Shown one piece after another: positions 9,081-64,000 of a stretch of 64,000 bases of DNA (its first letter is position 1; each line of letters opens with the position of its first letter). Origin of the DNA: Myxococcales bacterium. Its GTDB lineage: Bacteria > Myxococcota_A > Bradymonadia > REDH01. Made by a program: the position numbers and the translations under genes. The notes below the pieces were generated by a model that saw only the letters and a program-made list of their open reading frames with translations, did no database searches and had not been told where the DNA came from. The stretch covers positions 1,121 to 65,120 of the forward strand of contig CANMDT010000006.1 of assembly GCA_947496715.1 (NCBI GenBank). Direction: 5' to 3'.

Positions 9081-9268
9081 CTGGGTTCCTCTCCGAAAGA
9101 TGGTGCCAACTGTGAGGGATTGCGGCGGGTGTCAAGCAGCAAGTGCCTTGGCAGCCCGTGAGCAGGTTCGCAGAGTTCGGGTTGCAGTTGCGTGGCAGAC
9201 AGGTAGAATGCGCGTTTGAAAGGTGAAGATTCTTGGAGAACGTAGGTTCTCCTGTTGCGAGGCAGGCG

Positions 9269-41762: not shown

Positions 41763-41775
41763 GCGGAGCAGGACG

Positions 41776-47133: not shown

Positions 47134-47393
47134 GGGACCACGCTCTGGCGGATTGGTTGTTGGGCAGGGTAGTCGGGGGCGGGTTGGCCTGCAACCGATG
47201 GCGCAAAGTTGGCAGGCGGGTCTGCAAAAAGGTGCGGCTTTGCGCGCGGCGATGGAGGCGCGGGCGCAGTGGGAGCTGAGGCGGCGCGGGCGGCGGCGCA
47301 GGTTGGCGAAGTGGGTGCGGATTGTGTGCGTGCGTGGCACGAATCTTGTAGACTTGAGCAGGCAGGGCGCAGTCGCGCCAAAGCAGGTGATGC

Positions 47394-48098
47394 ATGTCGA
47401 AAAGTCGTAAGCGCAAAATCGGTCGGGGCTTCACGCTGGTGGAGCTGATGATCGTGGTGGTCATCGCGGGCGTGATCCTGGCGATTGGGGCCTACTTCGT
47501 GAACCGTCCGAACAATGCGAACAACCTCAAGCGTGCGACCGCGCGGACTCGGAATCTGGTGGAGGAGGTGCGTGCTGCAGCCCGGTCGACGGGTCGAGCG
47601 ATGCTGATCCAGATTCAGGAGTCGGATGTGTCATGGGAAGGCACGGCAGAGGGAGGGCGCGGTTCGAGCGTGGGTCGCATCACGGTCTATGTGTCGCCCG
47701 ACAACACCTGCCAGGGGGGCGTCGTTGGCACGCTGCCAACGCTGACGAAGAATCCTGGCTTTGAGGTGGATCATACGCCGAGCGGCAACTTTCGTGGCGC
47801 GGCGCTGGTTCGGGTAGAGCCGTCGAGCTCCTCGGGGGTGACGACGCTCTGTCTCACGCCTGCGGGCCGGATGGTGGATGCTGTGACGGGCGCGGCCTAC
47901 GCGTCGGTGGGGAACGCATCTGCGCAGAACGGGCTGGTGTTTGGCGGGCGGGTGCTGCTGGAGTTCGTGGAGGCGATTTGTGAGGGTGGCAGCAACGACG
48001 ATTGCCACACGGGCGCGCTGACACGCGACCTCGAGGTGGGGCCGATGGGTATGATAGACCAGATGCCGCCAGGCTTCCTGATCCGGAGTCTCTTCTGA
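47394..48098 (+). CDS. Prepilin-type minor (pseudo)pilin of the FimT/FimU/GspH type
   Basis: Class III signal: MSKSRKRKIGRGFTLVELMIVVVIAGVILAIGA. Confidence 0.7.
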   Translation: MSKSRKRKIGRGFTLVELMIVVVIAGVILAIGAYFVNRPNNANNLKRATARTRNLVEEVRAAARSTGRAMLIQIQESDVSWEGTAEGGRGSSVGRITVYVSPDNTCQGGVVGTLPTLTKNPGFEVDHTPSGNFRGAALVRVEPSSSSGVTTLCLTPAGRMVDAVTGAAYASVGNASAQNGLVFGGRVLLEFVEAICEGGSNDDCHTGALTRDLEVGPMGMIDQMPPGFLIRSLF

Positions 48099-48730
48099 TG
48101 AAAACGAAGCTGACAGCGCGTCTCGGTGCCGGTTCGATGGAGCGGGGCTTCACGATTCTGGAGGTGCTCATCGCGGTGCTGGTGCTGACGATTGGCATCA
48201 TCGGCATCATCGGCATTCAGACGGTCGCGATTGTCTCGGCGCGTGCCACGAACAACATGCGGAACGCCTCGGTGCTGGCAGAGACGCAGCTAGAGCGGCT
48301 GCGTCGCGACTCGGTGCTCTGGGTGCGGTCGATTGGCTGGGACAGCTCTTCTTCGCTGGGTCGGGCGATGGCATCGCCGGGCAGTTGGGTGCGTCCGGCT
48401 GCAGAGCCCGCGGTAGACAATGTGACCTACAACCAGCTCGGTTTGCCGAAACTGCCTGAGAGCACGCGGCTTGGTGATGGTGCTGCGACCTACTCGCAGC
48501 TCAACAGCAATTTCTGTCTCTTTTACCGCGTGACGCGGCTGGGAGATGAGTCGCTGGGTCGGGTGGAGGTGCGTGTTGTCTGGGCCCGGAACGAGGCGGG
48601 CGACTATCTGATTTCGCAGGGTTGCGACACGGTGATGGACCCAACCAACTTTGGCAGTGACAGCCTCTCGGAGGTTGTGGCGTCGACGGTTCTTGCGCCG
48701 AATCCGGCGCTTTCGGGAGGTGCACTGTGA
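48098..48730 (+). CDS. pilV: Type IV pilus minor pilin PilV-like
   Basis: ERGFTILEVLIAVLVLTIGIIG prepilin cleavage/methylation motif. The start overlaps the upstream stop (TGATG). Confidence 0.65.
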   Translation: MKTKLTARLGAGSMERGFTILEVLIAVLVLTIGIIGIIGIQTVAIVSARATNNMRNASVLAETQLERLRRDSVLWVRSIGWDSSSSLGRAMASPGSWVRPAAEPAVDNVTYNQLGLPKLPESTRLGDGAATYSQLNSNFCLFYRVTRLGDESLGRVEVRVVWARNEAGDYLISQGCDTVMDPTNFGSDSLSEVVASTVLAPNPALSGGAL

Positions 48731-49947
48731 GCGGGCGCGCTGTGAGAGCGATGCGCGGCTTCACGCTGGTGGAGCTGCTGATCGCGGTGTTGCTCAGTTC
48801 GATCGTGATCATCGCGCTGGGTACGCTGATCACGAATGCGACGAAGGTGTTTGATACGACCTCGCAGTCAGGGCTGGCGCTGGAGCGGCTTCACATGGCG
48901 CTGGATGTGGTGCGGAACGATCTGAGGACGGCCGGCTACGAGATGGCGCCGAATGCGGGATTGGACGATCCGCGGCTCTACAAGGGGCTCCGGAAGCCCT
49001 GTGCCAACCCGAGTTGGATGGGCAGCGAGAAGTTCGTGGCGGTGAAGCTGCTCGACGGCGGCGCCACGCTGGCGCTGTCGGGCTCTGATGCCGACGCCTT
49101 CCCGCCGGCAAGTTATGTGTCTGGCAAGAAGCCCGACCGCCTGGAGCTTGCGGGGGCCTTCCGAACGGGGCAGCGGTTTCATCCCGACACGGTCGCGCCG
49201 GGCGCTTCGTCGCTCACCTTGTTCAACCCATCGATGAGCAACGAGCTGGCGGCCTATGTCTTTGACGGCGCGATTCTGGGCGTCGTGAACAAGCAGGGCG
49301 GCATGCAGTTTCTGCGCGCCGGGGTTGTGACCTGGGGTAACCCGACGGGTGTTGTCGGATTGGATGCGGGCGACACCTTCTTGGGCGAGGTGGGCGACTT
49401 CGGGAGCGACTCTCTCTGCCGCTTCGACTTCCTCGACAAGAGCGACGTCATCGTGTCGCTGCAGCGTGTGGCCTACGACGTGGTTCAGGACCCTGTGGCT
49501 GCGACCGACTTCCTGCTGGTCCGCGAGGAGCTCGACGCTTCTGGCGCCTCCTTGGACCCTCCGCGACGGGTCATCATCGCGCGGAACATCGTGGACTTTC
49601 AGGTCTGGTTTGACGGCGTCGCGGGGGCCGCGGGGCTGGTGCCGGACATGCAGAACGATGGCGATCGGAGCGGCGAGGTCTGGTCGGACGACGAGGGGAC
49701 GATCCCGAACGAGAAGATGGGCGGTACCTCGGATGTTCAGGTGGAGCGGGCACGGTATGCCTATCTTCAGATTTCGGCGCGGTTTGACGGCCCGACGAAG
49801 GGGCTGGCGGCAGATGGTTCTGGCGAGGCCCTCAAGCAGACCTTCCCGCTCTACCCGAATGTTCCTGGCTCGGAGGAGCGTTCCTATGTCTCGACGGTCC
49901 GCGGCGAGGTGACGCTCACCAACTTCGCCTTCGCCGATGTGCGATAA
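48727..49947 (+). CDS. pilW: Type IV pilus minor pilin PilW-like
   Basis: MRGFTLVELLIAVLLSSIVIIALG. GTG start overlapping the pilV stop. 406 aa. Confidence 0.65.
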   Translation: MSGRAVRAMRGFTLVELLIAVLLSSIVIIALGTLITNATKVFDTTSQSGLALERLHMALDVVRNDLRTAGYEMAPNAGLDDPRLYKGLRKPCANPSWMGSEKFVAVKLLDGGATLALSGSDADAFPPASYVSGKKPDRLELAGAFRTGQRFHPDTVAPGASSLTLFNPSMSNELAAYVFDGAILGVVNKQGGMQFLRAGVVTWGNPTGVVGLDAGDTFLGEVGDFGSDSLCRFDFLDKSDVIVSLQRVAYDVVQDPVAATDFLLVREELDASGASLDPPRRVIIARNIVDFQVWFDGVAGAAGLVPDMQNDGDRSGEVWSDDEGTIPNEKMGGTSDVQVERARYAYLQISARFDGPTKGLAADGSGEALKQTFPLYPNVPGSEERSYVSTVRGEVTLTNFAFADVR

Positions 49948-49957
49948 GGGAGCCAAG

Positions 49958-50614
49958 ATGAAGCAACTTCAGCCCAAGAAAGTGAGCGAGCGGGGCAGTG
50001 CGCTGATCATTTCGCTGCTTGTACTGATGGCGTTGACCGGGCTGGGTGCGGTGGCCTTCACCTCGGCGATTTCGGGTGCGCAGGCGTCGCGGTTACGCCG
50101 TTCTACGGCGCAGGCGTCACAGATCACCGAGGGTGCGATGGCGGCGGCTGTGAATGCGCTGCAGTGCCAGTCGCTGGCCGATGCCATCGTGCAGCTGGCG
50201 ACCAATTCTCCGACGCGGACCGCGGCGCTGGAGAAGAATGTGGACCTGCAGTGCAAGACCACCTTCGTCACGGGCCAAGATTCGGCGTCGGCCTTTGGCG
50301 TCTACGCGGCGACCTCCGCGGGGGAACAGTCGGGCATGCAGCCAGCCTACTATGTGACCTATCGGAACCCCGTGGACGCGCGCCACGCTGCGGGCTCGGA
50401 GGTGGGTAAATACTGCCTCAAGCGGCTCGAAGTGAGCGTGGTTGGGGCGGTGGCGCCGCTGCTGGCGGAGGAGCTGATTGACGCAGATCAGCGGGCCTTG
50501 GACACCACAAATGACAGTTCGCTCGGGCGTTCGAACGCGGCGGGTTCGATGCGGAGCCGGATGGACGCAGAGGTCTTCGCGGGGCCGTTTCCCTGCTCGC
50601 AGACGGAGAAGTAG
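49958..50614 (+). CDS. pilX: Type IV pilus assembly protein PilX-like
   Basis: SERGSALIISLLVLMALTGLG, the N-terminal PilX domain. GGGAG ribosome-binding site. Confidence 0.6.
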   Translation: MKQLQPKKVSERGSALIISLLVLMALTGLGAVAFTSAISGAQASRLRRSTAQASQITEGAMAAAVNALQCQSLADAIVQLATNSPTRTAALEKNVDLQCKTTFVTGQDSASAFGVYAATSAGEQSGMQPAYYVTYRNPVDARHAAGSEVGKYCLKRLEVSVVGAVAPLLAEELIDADQRALDTTNDSSLGRSNAAGSMRSRMDAEVFAGPFPCSQTEK

Positions 50615-50616
50615 CG

Positions 50617-53600
50617 ATGCGGCACTGCAATAGGATTTTAGGGCTCGGCGCGGGGCTGCTCGGCGGTCTGCTGCTTCCGGCGCTGGCGTTAGGTCAGGAG
50701 TCGGGCGCGGAGTCGCAGCCGGTCTCGACGCCTTCGGTGCTCATCATCCTCGATTCCAGCGGGAGCATGGACTTCACCTCGGTGCCCGACACGGTGCCGT
50801 CGGTCTGTGTGGACCCGACATCGCTGCCGCTCGGCGCGCCGCCAACCTATTTGACGGACAACGAGCGGACCCGGATGATGATCGCCAAAGAGGCGCTGAC
50901 CGGCACGGTGGCGAACCGCTTCTGCGCGGCCGACGGCCGGACCACCTCGGGGCGCATCGACACCATCAACGGGGCGCGTCCCCAGGGCTTCCAGCACAGC
51001 CTGCTCTGCGCCTACGACGGCAACCCCACAACCTCCGACTGTGACCCTGCACAGCTGCCCGCTTCGCAGGCCTCCAACGGGCTGCTTGATGACCTTCGTG
51101 ATACCGTCAACTTCGGGTTCATGACCTACGACTCCTTCCCCGAGTCGGCGACCGATAGTTCGGGCATGTGGTCGTATGGCAACGCGAACACCACCTCGGG
51201 CGGCGCGACGATTCCCTGCGGCAGCGGGACCTGCGTGAACCTGGGTGTGCGTCGCCTCTCAACGGGCGCGAGCGATAGCATCCTGGGTCCGACCATCCCG
51301 CCGCTCAACCCGACGACCGACACGCTGGCCTTCCGTCAGGCGAACAACCTGACAGTGCAGGGGGCGATCCTCGAATCGATCCCCTACTGGTCCACGCCCA
51401 TCGCTGCGGCGCTCGAAGACACGGTCCGCTTCTACACAGGCCCTGCTGCCTCGACGGGGATCTGCGGCGCGGGCTCGTGCGACTATTCGCTCGGCCAGCC
51501 AGATCCGCTGGCGGATTGCCGAGATCGCAACGTCATCCTCATCACAGACGGCGAAGACTCGTTCGAGTCCTGTTACGCAGGCGCTTCGTCGTCGGGCTCG
51601 GGTGAGGGCGCGACGGGTTGCGAGGGCTACTGGTATGATCAGGCGACAGCCTATGCGGCTGACCTCGCAGACATGGGCATCGACCTCTATGTGGTGGCCT
51701 TCAATGTGTCGGGGACCGGGCTCATCTTTGATGCGATTGCTGAGGCGAACAAGCCGGGTCGCAAGGCCTTCATCGCGAACACGCAGGACGAACTGCGCTT
51801 TCAGTTGAGCGCGGTGCTGAGCTCGGTGCTGGCGGGCGAGGCGTCGCGGGTCGCGCCGCTGACGACGACGCGGACGGCGGAGTACCGCAGCGCGGGGACC
51901 ATCGGGACCTACAACATGTGGGCGATTTCGACAGTGCATGCCGACTCGCCCTATTGGTCGGGCGATGTGTTGCGCCGGCAGTTTGGCTGCGCGGGGACGG
52001 TGCTCGAGGAGGATCTGGGGGCTCGTATCCTCTTCTCGTCGTGGCTGGATGAACTCGACGCGTCGGAGCTTCGGACTGACCGCAAACTCTACACGCCGCA
52101 GCCGCAGGTGCATGGCTGCGCGCTGCCCAATCGTGAGAGCCTGTTTGCCGACACGCATGGCCTCATTGGCAGTACGTTGACGAACGCTACCTACGGTGTG
52201 AGCAACGCCGAGATTGTGGCGGCCTGTTCGGCAACGGGGCTCCCGGGTTCCGACGTGACGGCGTCGGCAGCCTGTATCGACCTGACCGACGGCGTGAAGG
52301 GAATCGGGATCACGCTGACGGAGGAGAACACGATGGCCGATTCGTGTCTCACGGAGCTTCGCGACGTGGTGACGCAGGCCGCGGCGAACTATGCGCTGTT
52401 CAATGTCGCGACCGCGAACGAGGCGGAGTTGGTGACGGACTGGACCTTCGGGGAGACCATCAGCGAACTCTGGCAGAACGCGGACTATCGGGCGCCGTTG
52501 GAGATGCTCCTGCCGGCGAGCATCCCGCTGACCGGCGCGGGGATTCCCGCAGCCAACGACCGACAGAGCCGTATGGGAGACATCTTCCACTCGACCCCTG
52601 AGGTTGTGGGGGCACCTGACCCTGAGCTCGATTTCAGCGTGGCCTACCGGACCTTCGCCGAGACGGTCGCGAGCCGCCCGACGATGCTCTATGCCAACAC
52701 GAACGACGGGCTGCTGCACGCCTTCAACACCGAGACGGGCGAGGAGGCCTGGGCGATGACGCCGGCCTCGCTCCTGCCGAAGTTGAAGTCGACGCTTTCC
52801 GGACATGCGCTGACGATGGACGGTTCGCCTGTTGCGCAAGATGTGCGGGTCTACCGCGGCCCGACTGCGAGCAGCTTTGAGGAGCGCTGGAAGACGGTTC
52901 TGGTGACCGGCTACCGCGGCGGCGGGCGGGGTTACACGGCGATGGATGTGAGCGATCCGCTCGCGCCGAAGTTCCTCTGGGAGCTCGATTCGGAGCTCGA
53001 CCCGCAGCTCGGTTACACCTTCGGCGAGCCGGCGCTGGGCACGGTCTTTGTGGCCGACTGCACCGCATCGGGCGCATCGTGCGAGAAGGGCGTTGCGATC
53101 CTGCCTGGCGGCCTGCCGTCGACGGGCGTCGCGGGCTTTTCGGCAACGCGCATCGGCAGGGTGCTCTATGTGGTGGAGCTCGAGACGGGGAAGGTGCTCC
53201 GCCGCTTCGATCGCTGGAACGATTCGACGGGCGATGAGCAGGTCTTTCCGGCTCCCTTCTCCGGCTCGATGGCCGCCTTTGACGTCTTTGCCGACGCGAC
53301 GGTGTCGCGCGCCTTTGTGGGTGATGCAGCGGGCAACATGTGGCGCATCGACATGTCGAGCGCCGACCTGACGGAGTGGGAGGTGACGAAGTTCTTCGAC
53401 CCGATCACCACGCTCGAACTTTACAGTTCGGGATCGGGCGAGCCGGACCCCGGCACGCTCGACTTTGGCGCGATCTTCTACCGACCGACGATAGCGCTCC
53501 GTCGGGCCGACGGTCGCGCGGTGGTGGTGTTTGGCTACGGCAACGTAGACGACCTTCGCTCGGTCGACGCCGAGAAGAACTATGTGGTTTCGGTGGTCGA

Positions 53601-54222
53601 GAAGCCGATCATCAGCAACACGACGGGGCTTGTGACAGGCATCGAAGGCGACATGAATTGGATGCTCGAACTGGCAGCCAACGAGAAGGTCTCGGCGCGG
53701 CCACGCATCTTTGATGAGACGGCCTACTTTGCCACCTTCCTGCCCGAGACGGGGAGTGCGAGCTGCTCGATGGGCAAGGCGCGGGTCTATGGCATCGACT
53801 TCCAGGGGACGGACGCTGCGGAGCGGCACATCGTCGACACGATTGACCGGGATGTGACCTTTGTTCCGCGTCTGACGGAGGCGCCGCTCGATCCGACGAG
53901 CGTCGACAAGGTGCCTTACTGGGAGTCCGGAACGGTGGATGCGTCGGTGATTGCCGAGAACTCGATCGTCTACTCGCTCGACATCACGCGGCCGGTGAGC
54001 TGCTATGAGACGTCGGCGGTGAGCGATCCGTTCGGTGGGAGCCGGGTGAAGTTCGGGGGCATTTCTGACGCAGGCTGGTCGCTCCAGATTGGTGCTTCGG
54101 GCCAGTCGGCGGCGAGCGACACGGCGGCCTCGGCGCAGGCCTCCAGCCAGACCTCGGTTGACCTCGATACGCAGAAGCCCCTCAACTCGTTTCCGACGAG
54201 TTGGGGCGTGATCGTGGAGTAG
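50617..54222 (+). CDS. pilY1: PilY1-like type IV pilus tip adhesin with an N-terminal von Willebrand A domain
   Basis: Signal peptide. The vWA domain opens VLIILDSSGSMD (MIDAS). The C-terminal beta-propeller block is MLYANTNDGLLHAFNTETGEEAWAMTP. Confidence 0.75.
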   Translation: MRHCNRILGLGAGLLGGLLLPALALGQESGAESQPVSTPSVLIILDSSGSMDFTSVPDTVPSVCVDPTSLPLGAPPTYLTDNERTRMMIAKEALTGTVANRFCAADGRTTSGRIDTINGARPQGFQHSLLCAYDGNPTTSDCDPAQLPASQASNGLLDDLRDTVNFGFMTYDSFPESATDSSGMWSYGNANTTSGGATIPCGSGTCVNLGVRRLSTGASDSILGPTIPPLNPTTDTLAFRQANNLTVQGAILESIPYWSTPIAAALEDTVRFYTGPAASTGICGAGSCDYSLGQPDPLADCRDRNVILITDGEDSFESCYAGASSSGSGEGATGCEGYWYDQATAYAADLADMGIDLYVVAFNVSGTGLIFDAIAEANKPGRKAFIANTQDELRFQLSAVLSSVLAGEASRVAPLTTTRTAEYRSAGTIGTYNMWAISTVHADSPYWSGDVLRRQFGCAGTVLEEDLGARILFSSWLDELDASELRTDRKLYTPQPQVHGCALPNRESLFADTHGLIGSTLTNATYGVSNAEIVAACSATGLPGSDVTASAACIDLTDGVKGIGITLTEENTMADSCLTELRDVVTQAAANYALFNVATANEAELVTDWTFGETISELWQNADYRAPLEMLLPASIPLTGAGIPAANDRQSRMGDIFHSTPEVVGAPDPELDFSVAYRTFAETVASRPTMLYANTNDGLLHAFNTETGEEAWAMTPASLLPKLKSTLSGHALTMDGSPVAQDVRVYRGPTASSFEERWKTVLVTGYRGGGRGYTAMDVSDPLAPKFLWELDSELDPQLGYTFGEPALGTVFVADCTASGASCEKGVAILPGGLPSTGVAGFSATRIGRVLYVVELETGKVLRRFDRWNDSTGDEQVFPAPFSGSMAAFDVFADATVSRAFVGDAAGNMWRIDMSSADLTEWEVTKFFDPITTLELYSSGSGEPDPGTLDFGAIFYRPTIALRRADGRAVVVFGYGNVDDLRSVDAEKNYVVSVVEKPIISNTTGLVTGIEGDMNWMLELAANEKVSARPRIFDETAYFATFLPETGSASCSMGKARVYGIDFQGTDAAERHIVDTIDRDVTFVPRLTEAPLDPTSVDKVPYWESGTVDASVIAENSIVYSLDITRPVSCYETSAVSDPFGGSRVKFGGISDAGWSLQIGASGQSAASDTAASAQASSQTSVDLDTQKPLNSFPTSWGVIVE

Positions 54223-54226
54223 GGCG

Positions 54227-55000
54227 ATGATGGCGCGCAGGCTCACACTGTTCTTTGTTCTGCTCCTCGTTTCGGCCTGTGACCGTGGTGCGGCGCCGGC
54301 CTCTCCTGCTGGTCCTGCTGCTTCGGTTTCGGCCTCCGGAGATGGCTCCGGAGCGAGCGTCGACCTGCCCATCTTCGGGCTCCCGCGGCTGCCGGGAACG
54401 CAGGTGGAGTTCATGTCGGAGGCGCTGGCCCATGCCCGCATTGCATCGAGCGTGCGGGATACGGTTTCGAGGCTCCTTGAGGCCGACAAGCGGTTCGCCG
54501 TCACCCGCTTCGACGGCGGCACGCGGCTGGTCTCGATGGATGGCAGCAGCCGCAGCATCTTTGTCTACCGGCTGCCAGGCGAGGGTGACACGATGCTCTC
54601 CTACTTTGCTGCTGCGCGGCCGCAGGAGGTTGGCGACGGCTCGGCGGCCCCGCCGCCGGCTGCTGCAACGTCGGGGCCGCAGCAGGTTCGCCGAGGTGCG
54701 TCGGCGCCCGGAGATCCGGCATCTTCAGGCGCTTCGGCCGGCCAGGGCGGTATCAAGGTTGGCAGCGACGGGCTGCGGTTCAGCCGTCCCGACTCCGTCG
54801 CTGCGATGCAGCGGCTCCTTGAACGGCCTGCTCCCGTGACCAAGGGCGGCGCTCGCCGCACTGTCCCCAACCAACCCATCTTGGACGCGGCCGGTCGGCC
54901 GACGGGGTATGAGCGCACGCTCTACGGCCGCGTGGTCCGTTCGAGCCCGCCGCCGCGCGTTACGCCTGTGCGGCGGAACGACAGCGTGTCGCAGTATTGA
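54227..55000 (+). CDS. Hypothetical lipoprotein, in the PilY2-like position
   Basis: Lipobox LLLVSAC. 257 aa. Tightly follows pilY1. Confidence 0.5.
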   Translation: MMARRLTLFFVLLLVSACDRGAAPASPAGPAASVSASGDGSGASVDLPIFGLPRLPGTQVEFMSEALAHARIASSVRDTVSRLLEADKRFAVTRFDGGTRLVSMDGSSRSIFVYRLPGEGDTMLSYFAAARPQEVGDGSAAPPPAAATSGPQQVRRGASAPGDPASSGASAGQGGIKVGSDGLRFSRPDSVAAMQRLLERPAPVTKGGARRTVPNQPILDAAGRPTGYERTLYGRVVRSSPPPRVTPVRRNDSVSQY

Positions 55001-55025
55001 GTCGCCCGTGACGAAAGGGCTGCTC

Positions 55026-56189
55026 ATGGCCCTGCTGCTCCTGCTCCCAGCGGGCGTTGCGTGGGCCGACGCATGGGGCGACGACTGCAACGCCTGCCCA
55101 CCCGGTGCCCGCTGGCGCGACGGCGCTGCTGTAACCTTCGAGGTGCCCGCCACGGTGCTCAGTGGCAGCTTGGCCTACGACCTGCGCGATGCCATGCGCG
55201 CCTGGCAGGAGGGGCCCTGCGTGGCACCGGCGCTCACTGCAGAGGTGGTCGACCAGACGCGGTTTCAGCGCGATGGTTTGAACGCCGTGGTTTTCGTGGA
55301 GTCTGCCCCGGATTCCGGCAATGAGGAGTCGGTGATCGCTGCCACCTGCAACCGGTGCGATGCAGCGGGCTTCATCGTGGAGTCGGACATCGAACTGTTC
55401 GGCCCGGCTGAGCGGTGGAACGATAACTGCCTCAGCGCCTCGTTTTCGCAGCGCGGTGTGCTGCTGCATGAACTCGGCCACGCGCTCGGGCTCGACGACC
55501 GCTACGACGATGGCGGACGGGTGACATATGGCGTGGTGGGCTCCGGTCAGAGCCATCGATTTGGTAGCCCTGCAGCAGGCGATTTTGGGGAGTTGTGCGG
55601 CCTGTATGGGGTGCGTCCTGATGCAGCCCTCTTCACCCCCGTGGCCGAGGGCTGCGTCGACTCGTTCGGGCGTGCGGGAGAGCGTTGCGATGGCGAAGGG
55701 CCGAGCCCCGCAGGACTGCTCTGCGTGCAGTTTGAGGGCGCCTCGCGCTGGGCCTGGCGCTGTGACAGCTGGCAGGCGTGCGAGGCTGGGGCGACCTGCG
55801 TCCCGCTCGGTTCCGAGGAGGATGACGTCGGCTTCTGCAGGCCCGATGCTCCCGTTGTAGCAGCCGCGTTGGGCGACCCGTGCGAGCAGGATTCTGCGTG
55901 CGCAGAGGGCCTCTGCGCTGCGGAGGCTGGGCAGGCCGGGCGCTGCCTGCAGGAGTGCGGTCCGAGCCTTGCCTGCGGCGGTGCCTGTAGCGATGTGGTG
56001 AGCGCGGGTGGCTACCGCGGCCGGTGGTGCAGGCTGGCCGAGACGACGAAGCCTGCGGTGCGTGAAGCGCAGGGCTGCGCGACGGCCGCCGCCGTGGGTT
56101 GGCCTGCGGCGCTGTTGTTCGGATTTCTCCATGTGGCGCGCCGGCGTCGGCAGGCGATCCGGCTTGCCACTCGGGGTCCTGCGCCGTAA
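55026..56189 (+). CDS. Secreted metzincin-like zinc protease with a Cys-rich C-terminal region and a MYXO-CTERM-like sorting tail
   Basis: Signal peptide MALLLLLPAGVAWA. HELGHALGLDD (HExxHxxGxxD, snapalysin-like). Many Cys in 250-370. The C-terminus GCATAAAVGWPAALLFGFLHVARRRRQ has the pattern Cys, hydrophobic stretch, Arg cluster. Confidence 0.65.
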   Translation: MALLLLLPAGVAWADAWGDDCNACPPGARWRDGAAVTFEVPATVLSGSLAYDLRDAMRAWQEGPCVAPALTAEVVDQTRFQRDGLNAVVFVESAPDSGNEESVIAATCNRCDAAGFIVESDIELFGPAERWNDNCLSASFSQRGVLLHELGHALGLDDRYDDGGRVTYGVVGSGQSHRFGSPAAGDFGELCGLYGVRPDAALFTPVAEGCVDSFGRAGERCDGEGPSPAGLLCVQFEGASRWAWRCDSWQACEAGATCVPLGSEEDDVGFCRPDAPVVAAALGDPCEQDSACAEGLCAAEAGQAGRCLQECGPSLACGGACSDVVSAGGYRGRWCRLAETTKPAVREAQGCATAAAVGWPAALLFGFLHVARRRRQAIRLATRGPAP

Positions 56190-56221
56190 CGATTGGCACC
56201 GTTGTTCGAGCAAGGTGGCAG

Positions 56222-57934
56222 ATGTTCTTGGCTGGTTGGAGAGCGTTGGCGAGAGAGCGGGGGCGGGCTGTCTGCAGCCTCGTTGCTGCGCTCGCGTTGC
56301 TCCTGCCGTGGACCGCGCTGCAGGCCGGAGAGCTGACGCGGGGCGATCGGCTGGCGATCCTCTACAGCCCGCAGCTCCGCTTCTCTGCAGACCGTGAGCC
56401 GCTCATCCGCGTTGGCCTGATGGATGCCGCCGCCGAGGTGCGGCTGACGGCCAACACGCTTGTTCAGATCGACCCGATGGGCGATGGTGCGCTCGCGGTG
56501 GATGTGCCCGCAAACACAACGCTCACGGTGCGGATTCGGGGCGGCGAGCCGGGTCGCTATAGTTACGCCGTGGTGGTTTCGGAGCTGCCGGCCGACTCGC
56601 TCGCGGGTGCCGAGAGGCTGGTGTCGCAGTGGCAGGGGCTTGGCTGGGACGCAGAGGTGCTGCAGGTTGGTGCGGTGTTTGCGGTCGACGGGCAGCGGTT
56701 CGACACGCGCAAGCTGCTGATCGCGGTGGGGCGGACCTCGTCGCAGGCGGAGGCGGACTCTCTGACGGAGCGGCTCGCGACGGAGCGGGGCATCGAGGCG
56801 ACAGTACATTCGGAGCTGGCTGACTATCCGGGTGGCTGGTTCGATGTGTCGGGGCTACCGGGTGGCGTGGTGGTTCACAGCCGTGATCTCGCCTGGCTTC
56901 GCGGTCGGCCGGAGACGGTCTTTACGGTGGAAGATGTCGTCTATGATCGCGGGACGAAGGGCGAGGGCAAAGAGAAGCGCAGGTATGTGGGTTCGCTCAT
57001 TTTTGCCGCCGATCGCGGTGGGCAGATGGTGCTGGTGAACGAGGTTGGTTTGGAGCGGTTGGTGGAGGGCGTGCTGCCCTCGGAGATGTATGTCTCGGCG
57101 CCCGTCGAGGCGCTCCGCGCGCAGGCGGTTGCGGCCCGCTCCGAGGTGCTCGGCTCGCTTGGCACGCGCTACACCGCCGACCCCTACATGACCTGCTCCG
57201 ACCAGCGCTGCCAAGTCTACAAGGGCATCGGCGCAGAGTCGGCAACGACGACGGCGGCAGCGCGGCAGACGCGAGGCCTCGTGCTGGCGAGTGGCGACGC
57301 GCTCATCCGTGCCTCTTTCTCGGCCAACAATGGCGGCTTCGCGGGCGGCAACGACACCACGTGGGGGAGCGAGCCTCTTCCATACCTTCAGCCCCACTAC
57401 GATGGCGCGGAGGCCTCGTCGAAGTTTGCAGGCGGCATCGGTAGCGACGGTGCAGTCGCTGCCTTCCTCGCGGAGCCCGGCGACGTGTTGTCGAACATCC
57501 GTGAATTTGGCGCGCTGGCCTCGTTCCGCTGGCGGGTAGAGTTGAACGCAGCGCAGCTCGCCGAGGCGGTCGCAAAGCGGCAGTCTGTGGGCAAGGTGCG
57601 TTCCATCCGTGTTGCGGCGCGCGACCGGAGCGGCAGGGCGACGCGGCTCGAGCTGGAGGGCGACGCCGGGAGCCTGGTGGTGGAGCGTGAACTGAACATT
57701 CGCCGCACGCTCGGCAGCCTGCGGAGCGCGCTGTTTGTGCTTGAGCCGACGACGAACGCGGCGGGCTTCGTCGAGAAGTTGGTGATCCAGGGCGGTGGCT
57801 TCGGACATGGCGTGGGTATGTGTCAGACGGGCGCAATCGGCGCGGCGCAGCGGGGCTGGACGGCCGAGCAGATCCTTGAGCGGTACTATCCGGGAACTGC
57901 GCTCCGGAACCTTTATGCGGCCGGGGGCGAATGA
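56222..57934 (+). CDS. SpoIID/LytB-domain protein (amidase activator / lytic transglycosylase-like)
   Basis: C-terminal GGGFGHGVGMCQTGAIGAA motif. Signal peptide. Confidence 0.8.
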   Translation: MFLAGWRALARERGRAVCSLVAALALLLPWTALQAGELTRGDRLAILYSPQLRFSADREPLIRVGLMDAAAEVRLTANTLVQIDPMGDGALAVDVPANTTLTVRIRGGEPGRYSYAVVVSELPADSLAGAERLVSQWQGLGWDAEVLQVGAVFAVDGQRFDTRKLLIAVGRTSSQAEADSLTERLATERGIEATVHSELADYPGGWFDVSGLPGGVVVHSRDLAWLRGRPETVFTVEDVVYDRGTKGEGKEKRRYVGSLIFAADRGGQMVLVNEVGLERLVEGVLPSEMYVSAPVEALRAQAVAARSEVLGSLGTRYTADPYMTCSDQRCQVYKGIGAESATTTAAARQTRGLVLASGDALIRASFSANNGGFAGGNDTTWGSEPLPYLQPHYDGAEASSKFAGGIGSDGAVAAFLAEPGDVLSNIREFGALASFRWRVELNAAQLAEAVAKRQSVGKVRSIRVAARDRSGRATRLELEGDAGSLVVERELNIRRTLGSLRSALFVLEPTTNAAGFVEKLVIQGGGFGHGVGMCQTGAIGAAQRGWTAEQILERYYPGTALRNLYAAGGE

Positions 57935-59493
57935 GTCGCCAGTTTGGAGTCCTGCTGGCTGTCGTGTTGCTGCTTTGCAGCAGCGCTGCCCGGGCGAGTG
58001 AGGGGAGCGGGTTTACGGAGCTGCGGCTGACGCGGGCGGAGCTGCTCGCGGAGCTGTCGGCCCGCAACTCCGCGGTGGCCGAGGCGCTGGCTGCGGTGCG
58101 CGAGGCGGAGATAGCGGAGCGGGCGCTCGAGGCGCGCTGGTCGTGGGGGCTGCAGGCCTCTGTGGGCTATGACCAGAACGAGTCCTATCCGGGCGGCAGC
58201 GGTCGCGGCGAACTGAGCACCGACGGACTCGGGCGCTGGTCGATGGGGCTGGCGAAGGCGTTGCCGTGGGGCACCACCATGGCGCTGACGCTCGGTCAGC
58301 TCCGCCGGACGCAGTCTGTGCCCTGTTCGACCGGCAACGAGGAGGGGCTCTACATTCCCTGCCTCTTCTTCGGAGCCGACAAGAGCCCCATCGAGCTCGG
58401 GCCCTGGTTCACGACGGCCGTGAGCGTGACCTTGACGCAACCGCTGCTCAAGGGCGCCGGCCGTGGCGTTTCGGAGGTGGTAGAGCAGCAGGCTTCGCTG
58501 GAGTTGGAGGCGCGTCGCAAGAGCGCCTCCGGGCTGGTTGCGCGGGCCTCGCTCGAGGCGCTCACCCTCTACGCCCGCTGGGTTGCCGCGAACTCCGAAC
58601 TCGCCGACCTCCGCGCCTCGCTAGAGCGGTCCAAGCGGCTCACCGAGATGGCAACGGCGCTGGTCGAAGCGGACCAGCTGGCGGCGGTGGAGGTTGCCTC
58701 GTTCGAGGTGCGCGAGCTCTCGCTGCGCGAAGCCCTGATGACCGCGGAAGAGTCGCTCGCGCTTGTCGGTTCTGGACTGGCAGCGGCGATCGGCGCGCCG
58801 CCCGGCGTCGTGGTCGTCCCGACCGAGCCGCTGCGGAGCTGGCTGCCACCCTCCGAGGGCGCAGATGCGCTCTGCGCAGAGGCCATCGCCCTGGATCCGA
58901 GGCTGCAGGAGCTAGCGATGCGCCGGCAGCAGGCGGAGCTCGCGGTGGAGACGGCCCGGGAGGAGGGGCGCCCGTCGCTCGACCTGACAGGTTCGCTCTC
59001 GCCTTCGGGCACCTCCGACGGCTGGAGTGGGAGCCTCTCCGACGCTGCCTCCATGGAGGCCCGCGGCTACGGTGCCGCGCTTACGCTCACGATGCCGCTC
59101 GACAATGTCGCCGCCGACGCCCGGCTCGAGCAGTCGAGGCTCGTCGGAGAGCGGCTCCGCACGCAGCAGTCGGCGCTCGAAGCGACGGTCTGCCGCGAGG
59201 TGCGGGTGGGCCGCGAGCGGCTCGCGACCATGGGTGCGCGTCGGGAGCTGGCGACGCGCAGGAGCGAGGAGACCGCGCGGCTCCTTGCTGCGCGCGAGGC
59301 CAAGTTTGAGGCCGGCTACGGGACAATGGATGAACTCTTCGCTGCGCTCGAGGGCCACGAACAATCCCGCGCTGCGGAGCGTCGGATTGCTGCCGAGGAG
59401 GAGACGGCCCAGCTGCAGCTTCTCGCCGCGCGCGGTCGGCTCCTGTCGACCTTCGCAGAGGCCCCGGTCACCTCGGACGCGTCGTCCCCATGA
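57931..59493 (+). CDS. TolC-family outer membrane efflux protein
   Basis: Signal peptide. Two repeats of the coiled-coil plus beta-strand architecture. Start/stop overlaps with both neighbours (ATGA). Confidence 0.75.
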   Translation: MSRQFGVLLAVVLLLCSSAARASEGSGFTELRLTRAELLAELSARNSAVAEALAAVREAEIAERALEARWSWGLQASVGYDQNESYPGGSGRGELSTDGLGRWSMGLAKALPWGTTMALTLGQLRRTQSVPCSTGNEEGLYIPCLFFGADKSPIELGPWFTTAVSVTLTQPLLKGAGRGVSEVVEQQASLELEARRKSASGLVARASLEALTLYARWVAANSELADLRASLERSKRLTEMATALVEADQLAAVEVASFEVRELSLREALMTAEESLALVGSGLAAAIGAPPGVVVVPTEPLRSWLPPSEGADALCAEAIALDPRLQELAMRRQQAELAVETAREEGRPSLDLTGSLSPSGTSDGWSGSLSDAASMEARGYGAALTLTMPLDNVAADARLEQSRLVGERLRTQQSALEATVCREVRVGRERLATMGARRELATRRSEETARLLAAREAKFEAGYGTMDELFAALEGHEQSRAAERRIAAEEETAQLQLLAARGRLLSTFAEAPVTSDASSP

Positions 59494-62400
59494 CCGGCCG
59501 CTCGGAGTCGCGGCTCACCCGCATGGCGGTAGAGCGGAAGGTCGCGACCTTGATGCTCACCCTGTCGCTCATGGTTCTGGGCCTGGTCGCCTGGTTCCGC
59601 ATCCCGGTCGAACTGGTTCCGTCGGGCTTCTCGCCCCCCTTCCTCTATGTGGAGGTTCCTACGCTCCGCTCAGCGCCACGCGACATCGAGCAGCGGGTCG
59701 CCGAGCCCTTCGAGGCGGCGCTGCGGCTGGTCAAGGGCGTGGAGCGGGTGGAGACCCGCATCGGCTCCAACTCTGCCGGCTTTCTGGTCGCACTGGCGAA
59801 CCGGACCAACATGGATGTTGCCTACAACGAGGTGCGCGAGCAGCTCGACCGGGCCCGCGTTGGTATGGGCGACGAGGTGCTCACCTACTTTGTCTGGAAG
59901 TATAACCCGAGCGACGACCCGGTCGTCTGGCTCGGCATCTCGACGGAGCGGGAGGGCGAACAGCTCGCAGGCCGCGTGCAGACGAGCATCGTCCCGCAGT
60001 TGGAGCGGGTGGAGGGTGTCTCGCGCGTCGAACTTATCGGCGCACCCGACGATGCGGTGGAGGTCGACTTCGACCTCGCCCGGATGGCTGCGCGGGGGCT
60101 GACGACGACAGAGGCGGTGGAGTCGCTTCGGAGGGCGGGATTCCTGCTCTCTGCGGGAGCAATCGAGACCCGCTCCGGCCGCCAACCTGTGCGGGTGCTT
60201 GCTGAGCTGCAGTCGCTGGCCGACCTCTCTTCGCTGCCTGTGGGCCGCTCCGTCAAACTCGGCGAGGTTGCCACGGTGAAGATGGTCGACAGGGCGGAGC
60301 GGATGGTCCACCGGGTCAACGGGCAGGAGGCCATCTTCGTGGCGGTGTTCAAGGAGTCGGCGGCGAACGCGGTCGAGGTATCGACTGCGACGAAGCGGGC
60401 CCTCGCCGAGGTCATCGCCCGCGAGCCGCGGCTGGCAACGCTCGAGCAACATGTGCTCTTCGACCAGGGCTCGATGATCGAGACCTCCATAAGAGACCTC
60501 TACGGCAGCGCCCTCGAGGGGGCGGCGCTCGCGATCCTCATCCTCTGGCTCTTCCTCCGGCGCGCGGTCATCACCGTGGTCATCGCGCTGACCATCCCCG
60601 CCAGCCTGCTCATCGCCGTCACGGTGATGTATTTCGCGGGTTACTCGCTCAACATCCTCTCCCTCACCGGCCTCATCCTTGCCGTCGGCATGGTGGTCGA
60701 CAACGCCATCGTCGTGAGTGAGCAGATCGAGCGTCGCATCTCGGCCGGGGTTCCACGTCGCGAGGCGGTGATCGGCGGCGCGAGCGAGGTCGGCCTGGCG
60801 ATCACTGTCTCGACGGCGACCCATGTCATGGCCTTTGTGCCCATCACGCTGATGAGCGGCAGCCAGAGCGTAACCTTCTACCTGTCGCAGCTCGGCTTGC
60901 CGGTCTGCGCCTCGATCGTCGCGAGCCTCTTCGTCTCGCTCATCTGGATCCCCTGGATCGCAGCGCACCTCCCGTGGGCCATTCCGGGCGTGCCGATTGG
61001 GGAGGACAAGGTGCGGGTGGAGGATCGGTTTGCGGGGTGGCTGGAGGTAGCGCTCCGCCACCGCGGGGATGTGGCGCTGGTCGCCACGCTGCTCTTCGCC
61101 TCGGTCTTCCTGATCGGCGACAAGGTGCAGCAGAGCGACCAGGCGCAGGCCAACATCGGCGATGTTCGCATGATCTACGCCTTCGACGACAATGTCACAG
61201 TGGATGAGCAGGAGAGGGTGCTCGCGGAGGCGGAGCGCATTTTGCTCGCGGGCCGTGAAGAGCTCGGGCTCCGCGACATCGTGGTCCGCATGGGTGGCTG
61301 GATGGGGCGTCCGCAGGTGCGCTGCTTCCTGGTGCCGCCGGACGATCGCAAGCTCACGCGCGAGGGTGTCATCGCCGAGCTGCAGCGTCGGGTCCCCCGA
61401 AAGGCTGGCGCGAAGTGGTCGCTCACCTGGGACACATCGGGTGGTGTCGGCGGCATTGACCTCATGATCGCCGGCAGACAGTCGGCTCAGCTCGATGCGC
61501 TGCTTCCGGCTGTGATCGAGCGGCTCGAGCGGCTGCCGGGTGTGACGAGCGTTGTCCGGCGCAACGAGGCAAGCACCAGCCGCGAACTCCAGCTCAGGCC
61601 CGACCGCGAGATCGCCGCCACGCTTGGGTTGCCTGTTGGGGCCGTCGGTGCCTTCGTCGACCTGGCCCTGCGCGGCCGTGAGGTCGGCCAACTTGTCGGT
61701 GGTGATGAACCCATCAAGATCTACGCCTCTGCGGGGGCCGCCGCCGCGACCAGTCCGGCTGCGCTCGACGCGCTCCCGCTCCCGACACTCTCCGGCATGG
61801 TCCCGCTCGGCTCGGTAACCCATGGTCAGGTGGCCTCCGGCACCGGCTCCATCGAGCGGGTCAACGGCCGCACGGTTGCGCAGCTCGTCGTTCGTACCTC
61901 CCGCGAAGACATCGATGCGCTCGGCAAGGAGATGGATAAGGCGCTCGCAGCCTTTCCCTGGCCGGAAGGGTATGGTCCGGAGAAGGGGAGCCGGCTGACG
62001 GGGATCGCCTCCAACAACAGTGACCTCTTCATCGCCTTCCTGCTGGCCACGGTCTTCATCTTTCTGCTCATGGGCTTCCTCTTCGAGTCCTTCGTCCTGC
62101 CGCTCGCCATCCTCTTCTCGGTCCCGTTTGCCTTCACCGGGGCCATCTGGACGCTCTATCTGACGGGCACACCGTTCGATGTCATGGCCGGCATCGGGCT
62201 GGTGATTCTGGTGGGTGTGGTTGTAAACAACGGCATCGTGCTCATCGACCTTGTGGCGGAGCGGAGACGTGGCGGGCTGACGCGGACCGAGGCGCTGGTA
62301 GCTGCCGGTAGAGAGCGTTTCAGGCCGGTCGTGATGACCGCGTTGACGACCATTGTCGGGCTCATCCCGATGGCCTTCGGCTCGACCGCGATTGTCGGCA

Positions 62401-62585
62401 TCCCCTACGCACCGCTTGGCCGGTCGCTGATGGGTGGCATGCTCTTTTCGACAGTGCTGACGCTGGTGGTCGTGCCGGTTGCCTATACCGTGATCGACGA
62501 CATCCGGCTCTGGTTCTACCGGCTATCGGGCCTTGGCGGCGACGAGGGAGAGGAGCGAGACGAAGTGAGCGACGCCGCGGTCTAG
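59490..62585 (+). CDS. RND-superfamily efflux transporter (AcrB/CzcA-like), 1031 aa
   Basis: 12-TM topology with two large periplasmic loops. Conserved GLILAVGMVVDNAIVV and GLVILVGVVVNNGIVLID motifs. Confidence 0.85.
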   Translation: MTGRSESRLTRMAVERKVATLMLTLSLMVLGLVAWFRIPVELVPSGFSPPFLYVEVPTLRSAPRDIEQRVAEPFEAALRLVKGVERVETRIGSNSAGFLVALANRTNMDVAYNEVREQLDRARVGMGDEVLTYFVWKYNPSDDPVVWLGISTEREGEQLAGRVQTSIVPQLERVEGVSRVELIGAPDDAVEVDFDLARMAARGLTTTEAVESLRRAGFLLSAGAIETRSGRQPVRVLAELQSLADLSSLPVGRSVKLGEVATVKMVDRAERMVHRVNGQEAIFVAVFKESAANAVEVSTATKRALAEVIAREPRLATLEQHVLFDQGSMIETSIRDLYGSALEGAALAILILWLFLRRAVITVVIALTIPASLLIAVTVMYFAGYSLNILSLTGLILAVGMVVDNAIVVSEQIERRISAGVPRREAVIGGASEVGLAITVSTATHVMAFVPITLMSGSQSVTFYLSQLGLPVCASIVASLFVSLIWIPWIAAHLPWAIPGVPIGEDKVRVEDRFAGWLEVALRHRGDVALVATLLFASVFLIGDKVQQSDQAQANIGDVRMIYAFDDNVTVDEQERVLAEAERILLAGREELGLRDIVVRMGGWMGRPQVRCFLVPPDDRKLTREGVIAELQRRVPRKAGAKWSLTWDTSGGVGGIDLMIAGRQSAQLDALLPAVIERLERLPGVTSVVRRNEASTSRELQLRPDREIAATLGLPVGAVGAFVDLALRGREVGQLVGGDEPIKIYASAGAAAATSPAALDALPLPTLSGMVPLGSVTHGQVASGTGSIERVNGRTVAQLVVRTSREDIDALGKEMDKALAAFPWPEGYGPEKGSRLTGIASNNSDLFIAFLLATVFIFLLMGFLFESFVLPLAILFSVPFAFTGAIWTLYLTGTPFDVMAGIGLVILVGVVVNNGIVLIDLVAERRRGGLTRTEALVAAGRERFRPVVMTALTTIVGLIPMAFGSTAIVGIPYAPLGRSLMGGMLFSTVLTLVVVPVAYTVIDDIRLWFYRLSGLGGDEGEERDEVSDAAV

Positions 62586-64000
62586 TTTGGTTTGTCGGTA
62601 GCTGCCGGCGGGGTTGCTGTCCCGGTGTCAGCGGGTTTGGCCCGTTTGGAGTTGTCCGCCTTCTTCCGCGCCCGGTCCTTCGACTTGCCCTTCGACTTGC
62701 CCTTTTCCGCAGCCTTGGGAACCGCGGTCTGCGAATTCAGCGGCAGGAGCGTCTGGCTTACAGTGCTCTGCGAGAGTCCTGGCTCCCATGTGTGCGGGAT
62801 GATCGCAGCGCCGAATCCGTCGCGGCGGAGCTCCAAGGTCGCGCCGTCGGCGGGGTCCACATAGATGGGCATGCAGACGGTCGGAGTGCTTCCGCAGGGG
62901 GTGCCGTTGACTGCAACGGTGGCGCCGGGTGGATTGGAGTCGACGCGGATGGTGTGTGGAAGCGGCTTGAGCGTGAAGAGCAACGAGAGAGGCGCCGTGC
63001 TGGTGATGTCTGCGGTTCCTACCGGAGGTGTCTCGAAGCCTTCGCGGCGCACGGTAAGCGTCTTGATTTCGCCAATCGAGGTCCCGACCAGGGTGGTGGG
63101 GGTGACGGCACCCGTCTCGATGCCTCCGATGACCACGCGGGCGCCCAAGGGCGATGAGGTGAGGAGGATCTGTTGCTTTTCTGCGGGCGCCGGTTGGAAG
63201 GACTTCTGCCAGGAGAAGAGGCCGTAGAGCAGGGCGGCTGCGGAGATTGCACCGACGAGCATCCAGCGGCGTGAGCGGACAGGATGCGCCGTCGGGGCAG
63301 CGAAGACGGTGGAGAGCCTGTCTTTGGAGGCCGGCTCGACCGGCGCGTTGCCCGTCGACGACTCGCTCCCCTGCCAGAGGTGGGAACCTGTCACCGAGAC
63401 ACTGGCGGTCCTCGCTGGCCGATAGGAGGGCTGCGCCGGCTGAGCGGGAAGAGGCGCGCTGCCGGTGCGGGCAATCTCGGGCAGGTAGTCAGAGGGCATG
63501 GGGACGGCGAGTGTCTCGCCGGAGAACATCTCGGCGTCGAAGGCAGAGAGAGCAAGCGAAGCGCCGCGCGTCCTTCCAAAGGCAGGCAACACCGAGCTTC
63601 CCGCGCCGGGTGTCGGATTGGGCGCGCCCAGCGGTAGAGACCGCTGCGCGTTGGAAGCTGCCTCGTGGGCAGCGAAGGCATCTGCGGCGCATGCTGCAAG
63701 CAGGGCATCGGAGAGCGGCTCGGGCTCGTCTTGGCGATCGGCCGCCAGCGAGCCATTGTCGGTGAAGGAGAACTCAGCCCGCTTCAGCGCGACGGCGTCG
63801 GGCGGCAGCGCGGAGCCGGCACGTCCCGAGAGGTGGGTGAAGATGAGCATGCGGAGCCGGTGGCGCGACGAGAAGGAGGCGCGAGAGCGAAGCCAGAGCT
63901 GCAGGCTTGCGCGCATGCTGGCGAGCGCCTCGGTGGAGCGCTCCGCAGGCTGCAGCATGGCGGCTTCGAGCATCTGCGCGATCTCGTCCGGGAGCCCCTC
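62582..64000 (-). CDS. Membrane protein with two periplasmic PEGA domains. The N-terminal (cytoplasmic) part runs off the window end.
   Basis: Transmembrane helix WMLVGAISAAALLYGLFSW. PEGA-like SSPLGARVVIGG...GAVTPTTL and DSNPPGATVAVNGTPCGSTPT. Lys-rich C-terminus. The frame is open upstream of 63973 to the window edge. Confidence 0.55.
   Translation of the reverse strand, partial: EGLPDEIAQMLEAAMLQPAERSTEALASMRASLQLWLRSRASFSSRHRLRMLIFTHLSGRAGSALPPDAVALKRAEFSFTDNGSLAADRQDEPEPLSDALLAACAADAFAAHEAASNAQRSLPLGAPNPTPGAGSSVLPAFGRTRGASLALSAFDAEMFSGETLAVPMPSDYLPEIARTGSAPLPAQPAQPSYRPARTASVSVTGSHLWQGSESSTGNAPVEPASKDRLSTVFAAPTAHPVRSRRWMLVGAISAAALLYGLFSWQKSFQPAPAEKQQILLTSSPLGARVVIGGIETGAVTPTTLVGTSIGEIKTLTVRREGFETPPVGTADITSTAPLSLLFTLKPLPHTIRVDSNPPGATVAVNGTPCGSTPTVCMPIYVDPADGATLELRRDGFGAAIIPHTWEPGLSQSTVSQTLLPLNSQTAVPKAAEKGKSKGKSKDRARKKADNSKRAKPADTGTATPPAATDKPN

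Follow-up and report, generated by a model that had tools for sequence, protein, structure and literature searches.

Here we describe a run of ten open reading frames (ORFs), all on the plus strand, at positions 47394-62585 of a 64-kb stretch of contig CANMDT010000006.1 from a Myxococcales bacterium (the whole stretch is called the window below). They encode, in order, FimU, PilV, PilW, PilX, PilY1, a lipoprotein, a metzincin-like protease, a SpoIID/LytB-type hydrolase, an outer-membrane factor (OMF) and a permease of the resistance-nodulation-division (RND) family. The reading that we favor, with moderate confidence, is that three separable cell-envelope modules, probably co-transcribed here, make up a mosaic super-operon. 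Module A (47394-55000) would provide the type IVa pilus (T4aP) priming/tip set FimU-PilV-PilW-PilX-PilY1 together with a lineage-restricted lipoprotein. Module B (55026-56189) would be a variable slot, filled here by a Sec-exported, MYXO-CTERM-tagged metzincin, and module C (56222-62585) would comprise three translationally coupled genes, for a SpoIID hydrolase of the periplasm, an OMF that resembles TolC and an RND permease that resembles Mdt(B/C). All components fall in known families and the cluster is not a new kind of system; it is the arrangement itself that is new.

Read directly from the sequence, neighboring genes among the ten are at most 32 nt apart, and four of the nine junctions are overlaps, of up to 4 nt (Table 1). 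This agrees with an earlier reading of the window (the first-pass annotation), which had reported tightly coupled stop and start codons among co-directional genes; ten genes were counted here, and the gene identities that it had proposed were borne out by Pfam and NCBIfam family scans. A gene call made independently on an identical contig from a metagenome (ENA ERZ27280234, locus L001) has the same ten genes, and each ORF has the high third-position G+C content expected of real genes in this region of about 66% G+C. Because no junction in the window exceeds 32 nt, the modules are probably co-transcribed, and we infer that a single transcript of the ten genes is most likely. Terminator-like sites were not above chance (9, against 8.6 +/- 3.2 in shuffled sequence), with none inside a junction, and an Rfam scan found no family present. 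Transcription of the whole cluster would start in the divergent intergenic region, 47134-47393, where a scan for consensus promoters found none. The minus-strand ORF upstream of it matches MM_CoA_mutase (Pfam; L001 gene call), and its start at about 47133 was inferred from where the conserved protein begins.

The gene that follows the RND permease is convergent, as the first-pass annotation had stated. It carries C-terminal PEGA repeats, its 5' part extends toward the end of the window or beyond it (the L001 gene call gives 692 aa), and its counterparts in two related loci (L082:16452-18476, minus strand; L083:17829-20171, minus strand) combine Pkinase with PEGA. This gene is kept beside the cluster in three lineages and is not found there in L085 or L104.

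Table 1. Features of the ten-gene cluster and its borders (positions in the window; a plus sign before a number in the junction column is a gap in nucleotides)
Feature	Position	Strand	Junction with next gene	Characteristics
Divergent intergenic region	47134..47393	.		about 260 bp between the methylmalonyl-CoA-mutase-like gene (-) and fimU (+); presumed cluster promoter region
fimU-like (GspH-like) minor pilin, 234 aa	47394..48098	+	TGATG, 1-nt overlap (pilV start 48098)	PF07963 N_methyl E 5e-7; TIGR01708 GspH E 9e-10
pilV-like minor pilin, 210 aa	48098..48730	+	GTGA, 4-nt overlap	TIGR02523 PilV E 1.4e-12; N_methyl; same start in the independent gene call
pilW-like minor pilin, 406 aa	48727..49947	+	+10	N_methyl E 1.4e-5
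pilX-like (GspK-like) minor pilin, 218 aa	49958..50614	+	+2	weak NF037980 GspK match, E 1.7e-4; alternative ATG 49937
PilY1 tip adhesin, 1201 aa	50617..54222	+	+4	signal peptide, N-terminal DxSxS/LITDG region, C-terminal beta-propeller
PilY1-coupled lipoprotein, 257 aa	54227..55000	+	+25, or +8 with GTG start	lipobox LVSAC; no Pfam or NCBIfam match; family unnamed
Secreted metzincin-like protein, 387 aa	55026..56189	+	+32	HELGHALGLDD, Cys-rich C-terminal domain, MYXO-CTERM-type tail; alternative GTG start 55009
SpoIID/LytB-type peptidoglycan glycan-strand hydrolase, 570 aa	56222..57934	+	ATGA, 4-nt overlap	about 230-aa N-terminal beta-rich extension with ferredoxin-like (SPOR-like) unit
TolC-family OMF, 520 aa	57931..59493	+	ATGA, 4-nt overlap	PF02321 OEP E 1e-14, two repeats, 55.3 bits against cut-off 22
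RND permease, Mdt(B/C)-like, 1031 aa	59490..62585	+		PF00873 583 bits, covering 10-1002 of 1031
Convergent PEGA-domain gene	62582..63973	-		stop overlaps RND stop; PF08308 PEGA E 8e-13; marks the 3' boundary of the cluster

Gene order in related loci

The neighborhoods of SpoIID, RND and lipoprotein homologs were looked up, and every fetched locus (designated by an L number) was searched by tblastn with all cluster proteins. By its SpoIID homologs, the uncultured source organism is a relative of the Bradymonadia (Myxococcota). The full order fimU-pilV-pilW-pilX-pilY1-lipoprotein-M10-SpoIID-OMF-RND was found in L082 (identities: SpoIID 53%, PilY1 37%, RND 45%) and, with an extra PEGA-domain protein before the M10 gene and a different downstream flank, in L085/86 (SpoIID 48%, PilY1 39%, RND 45%). 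L083/84 (SpoIID 51%, PilY1 36%, RND 45%) has the pil genes and the SpoIID-OMF-RND trio but no metzincin, and the lipoprotein gene is separated from that of SpoIID by a PEGA gene on the opposite strand. The arrangement is therefore no one-off, the pil set and the trio standing together in all three of these lineages, in L083/84 without the metzincin. Identity of the OMF between the window and these lineages is 28-32%.

Elsewhere the same genes come apart. In L104, the closest distinct relative (SpoIID 66.5%, OMF 42%, RND 63%), SpoIID-OMF-RND stands alone behind a divergent gene and a 448-bp intergenic region, and neither the neighborhood nor tblastn revealed a pil, lipoprotein, PEGA or M10 gene nearby. 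L002 and L088 (SpoIID 39-41%) carry pilVWX-PilY1-lipoprotein-PEGA-SpoIID and no pump, L087 (SpoIID 44%) has the pil-to-PEGA block inverted so that it converges on SpoIID, and L089 (SpoIID 39%) retains PEGA-SpoIID only. In the cultured Lujinxingia litoralis (L103, lipoprotein homolog P0292), fimU-pilVWX-PilY1-lipoprotein-PEGA is followed by unrelated genes. The proposal of one coupled cluster, or dedicated module, does not hold as it was first worded, since the modules are separate in L104, L103 and L002/L088, interrupted in L083 and inverted in L087. Separate promoters for the pil genes and the genes downstream, which had been named as a finding that would undo the linkage, are to be expected in at least two relatives: with a minus-strand PEGA gene before it in L083, and a divergent gene plus 448 bp in L104, the trio must have its own promoter and be transcribed separately there.

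The trio is what remains undivided across the clade, and in the nearest relative it stands alone. OMF and RND genes overlap by 4 nt in all five lineages that have it (window, L082, L083, L085, L104), and SpoIID and OMF genes overlap or abut in the window, L085 and L104, whereas gaps of 39 nt and 151 nt separate them in L082 and L083, respectively. Besides L085, seven further pairs of SpoIID and RND matches have equal longest-contig sizes (14758, 14296, 19164, 19444, 57748, 117372 and 49193), which suggests, without proving, that each pair lies on one contig and that the linkage is common in the clade. The slot between the lipoprotein and SpoIID is occupied by a PEGA protein in the outgroups, by PEGA plus M10 in L085, and by the M10/metzincin gene alone in L082 and the window. 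We propose that an older pil-PilY1-lipoprotein-PEGA-SpoIID arrangement would have gained the OMF-RND pair downstream in this clade, SpoIID being the hinge.

The secreted PEGA-domain family that recurs between the lipoprotein and SpoIID genes has members of 340-470 aa (L002:8440-9591, L085:7474-8493, L088:8733-10007, L089:8782-9978, L103:10534-11946 and, on the minus strand, L083:8807-9856). The two C-termini that were read, WTF in L083 and FRW in L002, have an aromatic final residue, like those of outer-membrane proteins.

The modules could also be neighbors through slow rearrangement, each with its own promoter inside the preceding gene. We regard such mere adjacency as unlikely, because every junction in the window is so short, four of them overlapping, because no junction holds a terminator-like site, and because L085 keeps the cluster despite its different downstream flank. 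It does gain from the separate transcription of the trio in L083 and L104 and from the extension of synteny into the flanks of L082 and L083, which share MM_CoA mutase upstream and a PEGA kinase and adenylosuccinate synthase downstream.

The pilus genes, the lipoprotein and the metzincin

The T4aP priming/tip set is established for Myxococcus xanthus (PMC7541494), and the five pil genes of the window have the same identity and order as in M. xanthus cluster_1 to _3 and in P. aeruginosa fimU-pilVWXY1Y2E, with a homologous PilY1 beta-propeller (3HX6). Prepilin motifs (PF07963, TIGR02532) are present on fimU, pilV and pilW; in pilX the hydrophobic N-terminus resembles that of GspK and lacks E5. 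The coding sequence of the prepilin motif RGFT-L/I-VEL in fimU, pilV and pilW makes up a direct repeat of 36 nt (copies 81-92% identical) at 47424-47459, 48143-48178 and 48754-48789, and the repeat scan yielded nothing beyond these motif repeats. Orthologs of fimU occupy the same position in L082, L083 and L085, those of pilW in the same loci are 33-34% identical, and the pilX slot between pilW and pilY1 is conserved in relatives.

PilY1 matches PF05567 (E 6e-19, 68.6 bits against a cut-off of 28.1), and the profile of its orthologs matches the P. aeruginosa PilY1 structure 3HX6 with E 1.6e-37. A von Willebrand factor A (vWA) domain at the N-terminus, with a metal ion-dependent adhesion site, had been assigned to this protein. 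The motifs on which this depends stand, D46, S48 and S50 (DxSxS) and LITDG at 308-312 being invariant in an alignment of five orthologs, but the domain itself found no backing in hidden Markov model scans with Pfam and NCBIfam at E up to 5, in a PDB sequence search or in hhalign. PilY1.3 of M. xanthus and P. aeruginosa PilY1 have an N-terminal vWFA domain (PMC7541494), and the DxSxS motif of the window protein is compatible with it.

Homologs of the lipoprotein lie directly after pilY1 in L002, L082, L083, L085, L087, L088 and L103. The family is small (96 representatives among 1.84 billion protein clusters), and its members are labeled "hypothetical protein" in every source naming them. The AlphaFold2 (AF2) model shows a single small alpha/beta domain of about 85 residues (approximately 45-130) with disordered tails and a predicted local confidence (pLDDT) of 95-97 over residues 50-130; no PDB fold matched it significantly, the best being BamC with E 3e-3. 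An accessory gene beside pilY1 has a precedent in tfcP of M. xanthus cluster_1 (PMC13190605, PMC8833165). We infer that the lipoprotein may be a PilY1 accessory factor, comparable to TfcP in its role though not in its sequence. In contrast to the M. xanthus and P. aeruginosa pil clusters, the accessory gene of the window encodes an unrelated lipoprotein of an unnamed family, and the cluster runs on into a protease, SpoIID and a pump.

The secreted protease had been described as an HExxHxxGxxD metzincin. The motif is as stated, but with 17-18.5 bits the protein falls short of the 24 bits that Pfam sets for M10, it lacks the Met-turn methionine, with VTY where the orthologs have VMY or AMF, and Asp replaces the third zinc-ligand His. 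The orthologs in L082 and L085 are canonical in third His and Met-turn and reach 35-36 bits with M10; the window protein is also without the N-terminal region of about 100 aa of these two orthologs. The Asp could possibly act as a zinc ligand of the snapalysin type, the match to NF033628 reaching only E 0.36. The MYXO-CTERM-like tail was upheld marginally, the isolated C-terminal 95 aa scoring 20.1 bits with TIGR03901 against a cut-off of 20, and the C-terminal Cys, transmembrane (TM) helix and Arg-rich tail are conserved in both orthologs. These three features are shared with the myxosortase-dependent metalloproteases MXAN_2677 and MXAN_2678, and the L082 and L085 orthologs match the corresponding family, NF041905, with E 1e-9 to 1e-11, all NF041905 matches remaining far under the cut-off of 250 bits. 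Unlike that family, the window protein has HExxHxxGxxD, no Met-turn Met and a shorter N-terminus. [quoted passage not shown] The metzincin of the window would likewise be anchored to the cell surface through a myxosortase and the T2SS. A GC-rich hairpin of nine pairs with a T-poor tail is present at 56090-56111 (+), inside the coding sequence of the MYXO-CTERM helix and 78 nt before the metzincin stop.

That all ten products form one integrated system, for example a contact or predation module with target binding by the pilus tip, attack on envelopes or their remodeling by the protease and SpoIID, and export or protection by the pump, is in our view quite unlikely. The tight coupling in the window and the retention of the order in three lineages whose PilY1 identity has fallen to about 37% speak for it, as does the biology of Bradymonadia, contact predators in which type IV pili have been seen at prey contact sites (PMC7460792). 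However, the modules are separate in L104, L103, L002, L088 and L089, inverted in L087 and interrupted in L083, and no metzincin is present in L083, L104 or any of the outgroups. Moreover, SpoIID carries only a Sec signal plus a SPOR-like unit, as is usual for enzymes whose target is the wall of their own cell, and its orthologs occur throughout the Myxococcota in unrelated contexts.

SpoIID and an efflux pair without an adaptor gene

SpoIID is assigned by TIGR02669 (181 bits against a cut-off of 83.3) and PF08486 (74 bits against 23). Its AF2 model (pLDDT 87, predicted TM-score 0.85) matches C. difficile SpoIID 5i1t (Foldseek E 1.6e-12, TM-score 0.76), so that the catalytic-domain fold is that of Bacillus and Clostridium SpoIID, with which it also shares the Glu of the SEM motif. 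This residue, E288 (LPSEMY, PSEM motif), is invariant in 26 orthologs and is what we take to be the equivalent of the catalytic Glu of Bacillus SpoIID. The protein differs from the Bacillus and Clostridium enzymes in its Gram-negative, non-sporulating host, in the extension of about 230 aa, whose ferredoxin-like unit gives a weak Foldseek match to the SPOR protein DedD, and in having pilus and pump genes as neighbors instead of sporulation genes. Orthologs that share this architecture (550-600 aa) are found in Myxococcus, Cystobacter, Polyangia and others, and among the matches listed none has pil, pump, PEGA or M10 neighbors in its 10-kb flanks. A SpoIID profile scan of a genome collection found, among the matches listed, no relative closer than 40% identity.

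The OMF matched no PDB sequence; its identity to the OMF encoded by the MdtABC-like operon of L102 is 27%. For the RND permease the best PDB match is MdtB (E 2e-74), MexB and AcrB matching as well, and the NCBIfam MdtC/MdtB models are among the better-scoring named models, behind generic RND_permease models. Beyond the clade, its nearest homologs are 34-37% identical and are each encoded as the second RND in operons with the order MFP-(PP2C)-RND1-RND2-OMF, where MFP is a membrane-fusion protein, the adaptor; these also have a 520-aa OMF. Compared with such MdtABC-type tripartite systems, the window has a single RND with the OMF gene upstream and overlapping, no MFP, no partner RND, and SpoIID coupled in front. 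The motifs of TM4 (VVDN), TM10 (VVNN...D) and TM11 (RxRP) are the same in kind in the adaptor-less clade and in the MFP-containing operons. AcrB has DD in TM4 and K in TM10. A degenerate permease, as VVDN and VVNN might have indicated, was rejected, the motifs being common to all homologs including those in MFP operons.

The absence of an MFP gene, as first reported, was confirmed within the 64-kb window. Pfam found none in its large ORFs of high third-position G+C (about 22.3-25.6, 29.7-31.0 and 32.0-33.6 kb were not scanned), and tblastn was negative across the whole window and L082-L086 when genuine MFPs, one of L101 and one of L102, served as queries. As a positive control, the same queries found MFPs in L090-L095 and L098-L102, including beside nine unrelated RND genes; the RND scan of metagenomes had returned only these unrelated pumps, 24-30% identical. 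No MFP is annotated in the L104 record. Candidates for a concealed adaptor were discarded. HlyD matches at 41596-42309 fall on a biotin carboxyl carrier protein, in its biotin-lipoyl domain, beside biotin carboxylase; the lipoprotein has one alpha/beta domain and disorder and no MFP-like fold, and the N-terminal extension of SpoIID has no hairpin in the model and is present in orthologs without any pump. As the permease motifs are shared with homologs from MFP operons, nothing in the RND itself marks a mechanistic difference, and as its nearest outside homologs work in MFP-RND-RND-OMF operons, the pump most probably, to judge from sequence relationships, borrows an adaptor encoded elsewhere in the genome.

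Instead, the trio could be an adaptor-independent or SpoIID-assisted machine, in which SpoIID opens or organizes peptidoglycan or bridges RND and OMF, or in which the pump exports glycan fragments that SpoIID releases. This would account for the persistence of the trio in five lineages, at RND identities as low as 45%, with the OMF/RND overlap in all and an MFP in none, and for the conserved extension of SpoIID. Nevertheless, we find it improbable: the same SpoIID architecture, extension included, is found in Myxococcus, Cystobacter, Polyangia and others with no pump nearby, the model of the extension has no alpha-hairpin or lipoyl-like MFP features, the RND motifs are all common to homologs that have an MFP, and the SpoIID-OMF gaps in L082 and L083 indicate looser coupling. 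The bolder version, an envelope-spanning exporter without a classical adaptor that has the hydrolase as obligatory assembly or bridging partner and is recurrently attached to the PilY1 operon because both serve one task, at the cell pole or where Bradymonadia-type predators touch their prey, is very improbable.

Several other observations were made on pumps of this kind and on the window. In MdtABC-like operons, two proteins from independent clusters are called as single RND-OMF polypeptides (ACR_tran, then OEP), P0192 (1555 aa, L100:8001-12668) and P0195 (1531 aa); these could be real fusions or read-through of a 4-nt overlap, and a C-terminal OMF on an RND is topologically odd. Two MdtABC-like operons, each from another sample, have a gene for a PP2C-type phosphatase after the MFP and before the first RND (L100:3278-4345; L102:1974-4178). 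In the window, a cell-wall peptidase gene of the Peptidase_M15 (DUF882) type adjoins a ParA/MinD-type ATPase gene (7288-8295 and 8211-9131, both on the minus strand), and an ORF of >1170 aa that runs off the window start (2-3511, minus strand) has a weak Met-zincin (DUF4953) motif match and may be a secreted metalloprotease.

Weighing and meaning of the arrangement

Some points weigh against a three-module super-operon as we have described it. Promoters may lie inside coding sequence. The metzincin of the window may be inactive or divergent, given its Asp for the third His and the lost Met-turn Met, and the link of SpoIID to either module may be historical, not functional, given the orthologs in unrelated contexts throughout the Myxococcota. 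A 4-nt OMF/RND overlap without an MFP across lineages only 45% identical in the RND is unusual for an adaptor-needing pump and leaves room for a mechanistic difference.

That the arrangement is undescribed, as the first-pass annotation had claimed, is borne out by full-text literature searches, in which no publication was found to describe PilY1 clusters joined to SpoIID, PEGA or efflux genes; searches for SpoIID with Myxococcus and pilus, or with RND, efflux and operon, found nothing relevant. A 2026 survey of myxobacterial PilY1 loci, with Bradymonadia outside its coverage, mentions no SpoIID, PEGA or efflux neighbors (PMC13190605), and in the genome paper on Bradymonabacteria, type IV pili at contacts with prey are discussed, but not PilY1, SpoIID or RND (PMC7460792).

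The OMF-RND pair coupled to SpoIID without an adaptor gene means either that adaptors are routinely shared in trans in this clade or that there is an exception to the RND adaptor rule. Wall-modifying enzymes affect piliation in other phyla, as is reported for two of them: the metalloprotease NGO1686 in gonococci (PMC3735123) and LytF in S. sanguinis (PMC13192262). By analogy, a functional link between SpoIID and pilus assembly is plausible, and the recurrence of a PEGA-domain protein and a SpoIID-type wall hydrolase beside the pil operon hints at a dedicated peptidoglycan-handling step in pilus assembly. The lipoprotein family, always directly after pilY1 in Bradymonadia and related Myxococcota, is a candidate for a new pilus priming/tip accessory factor.

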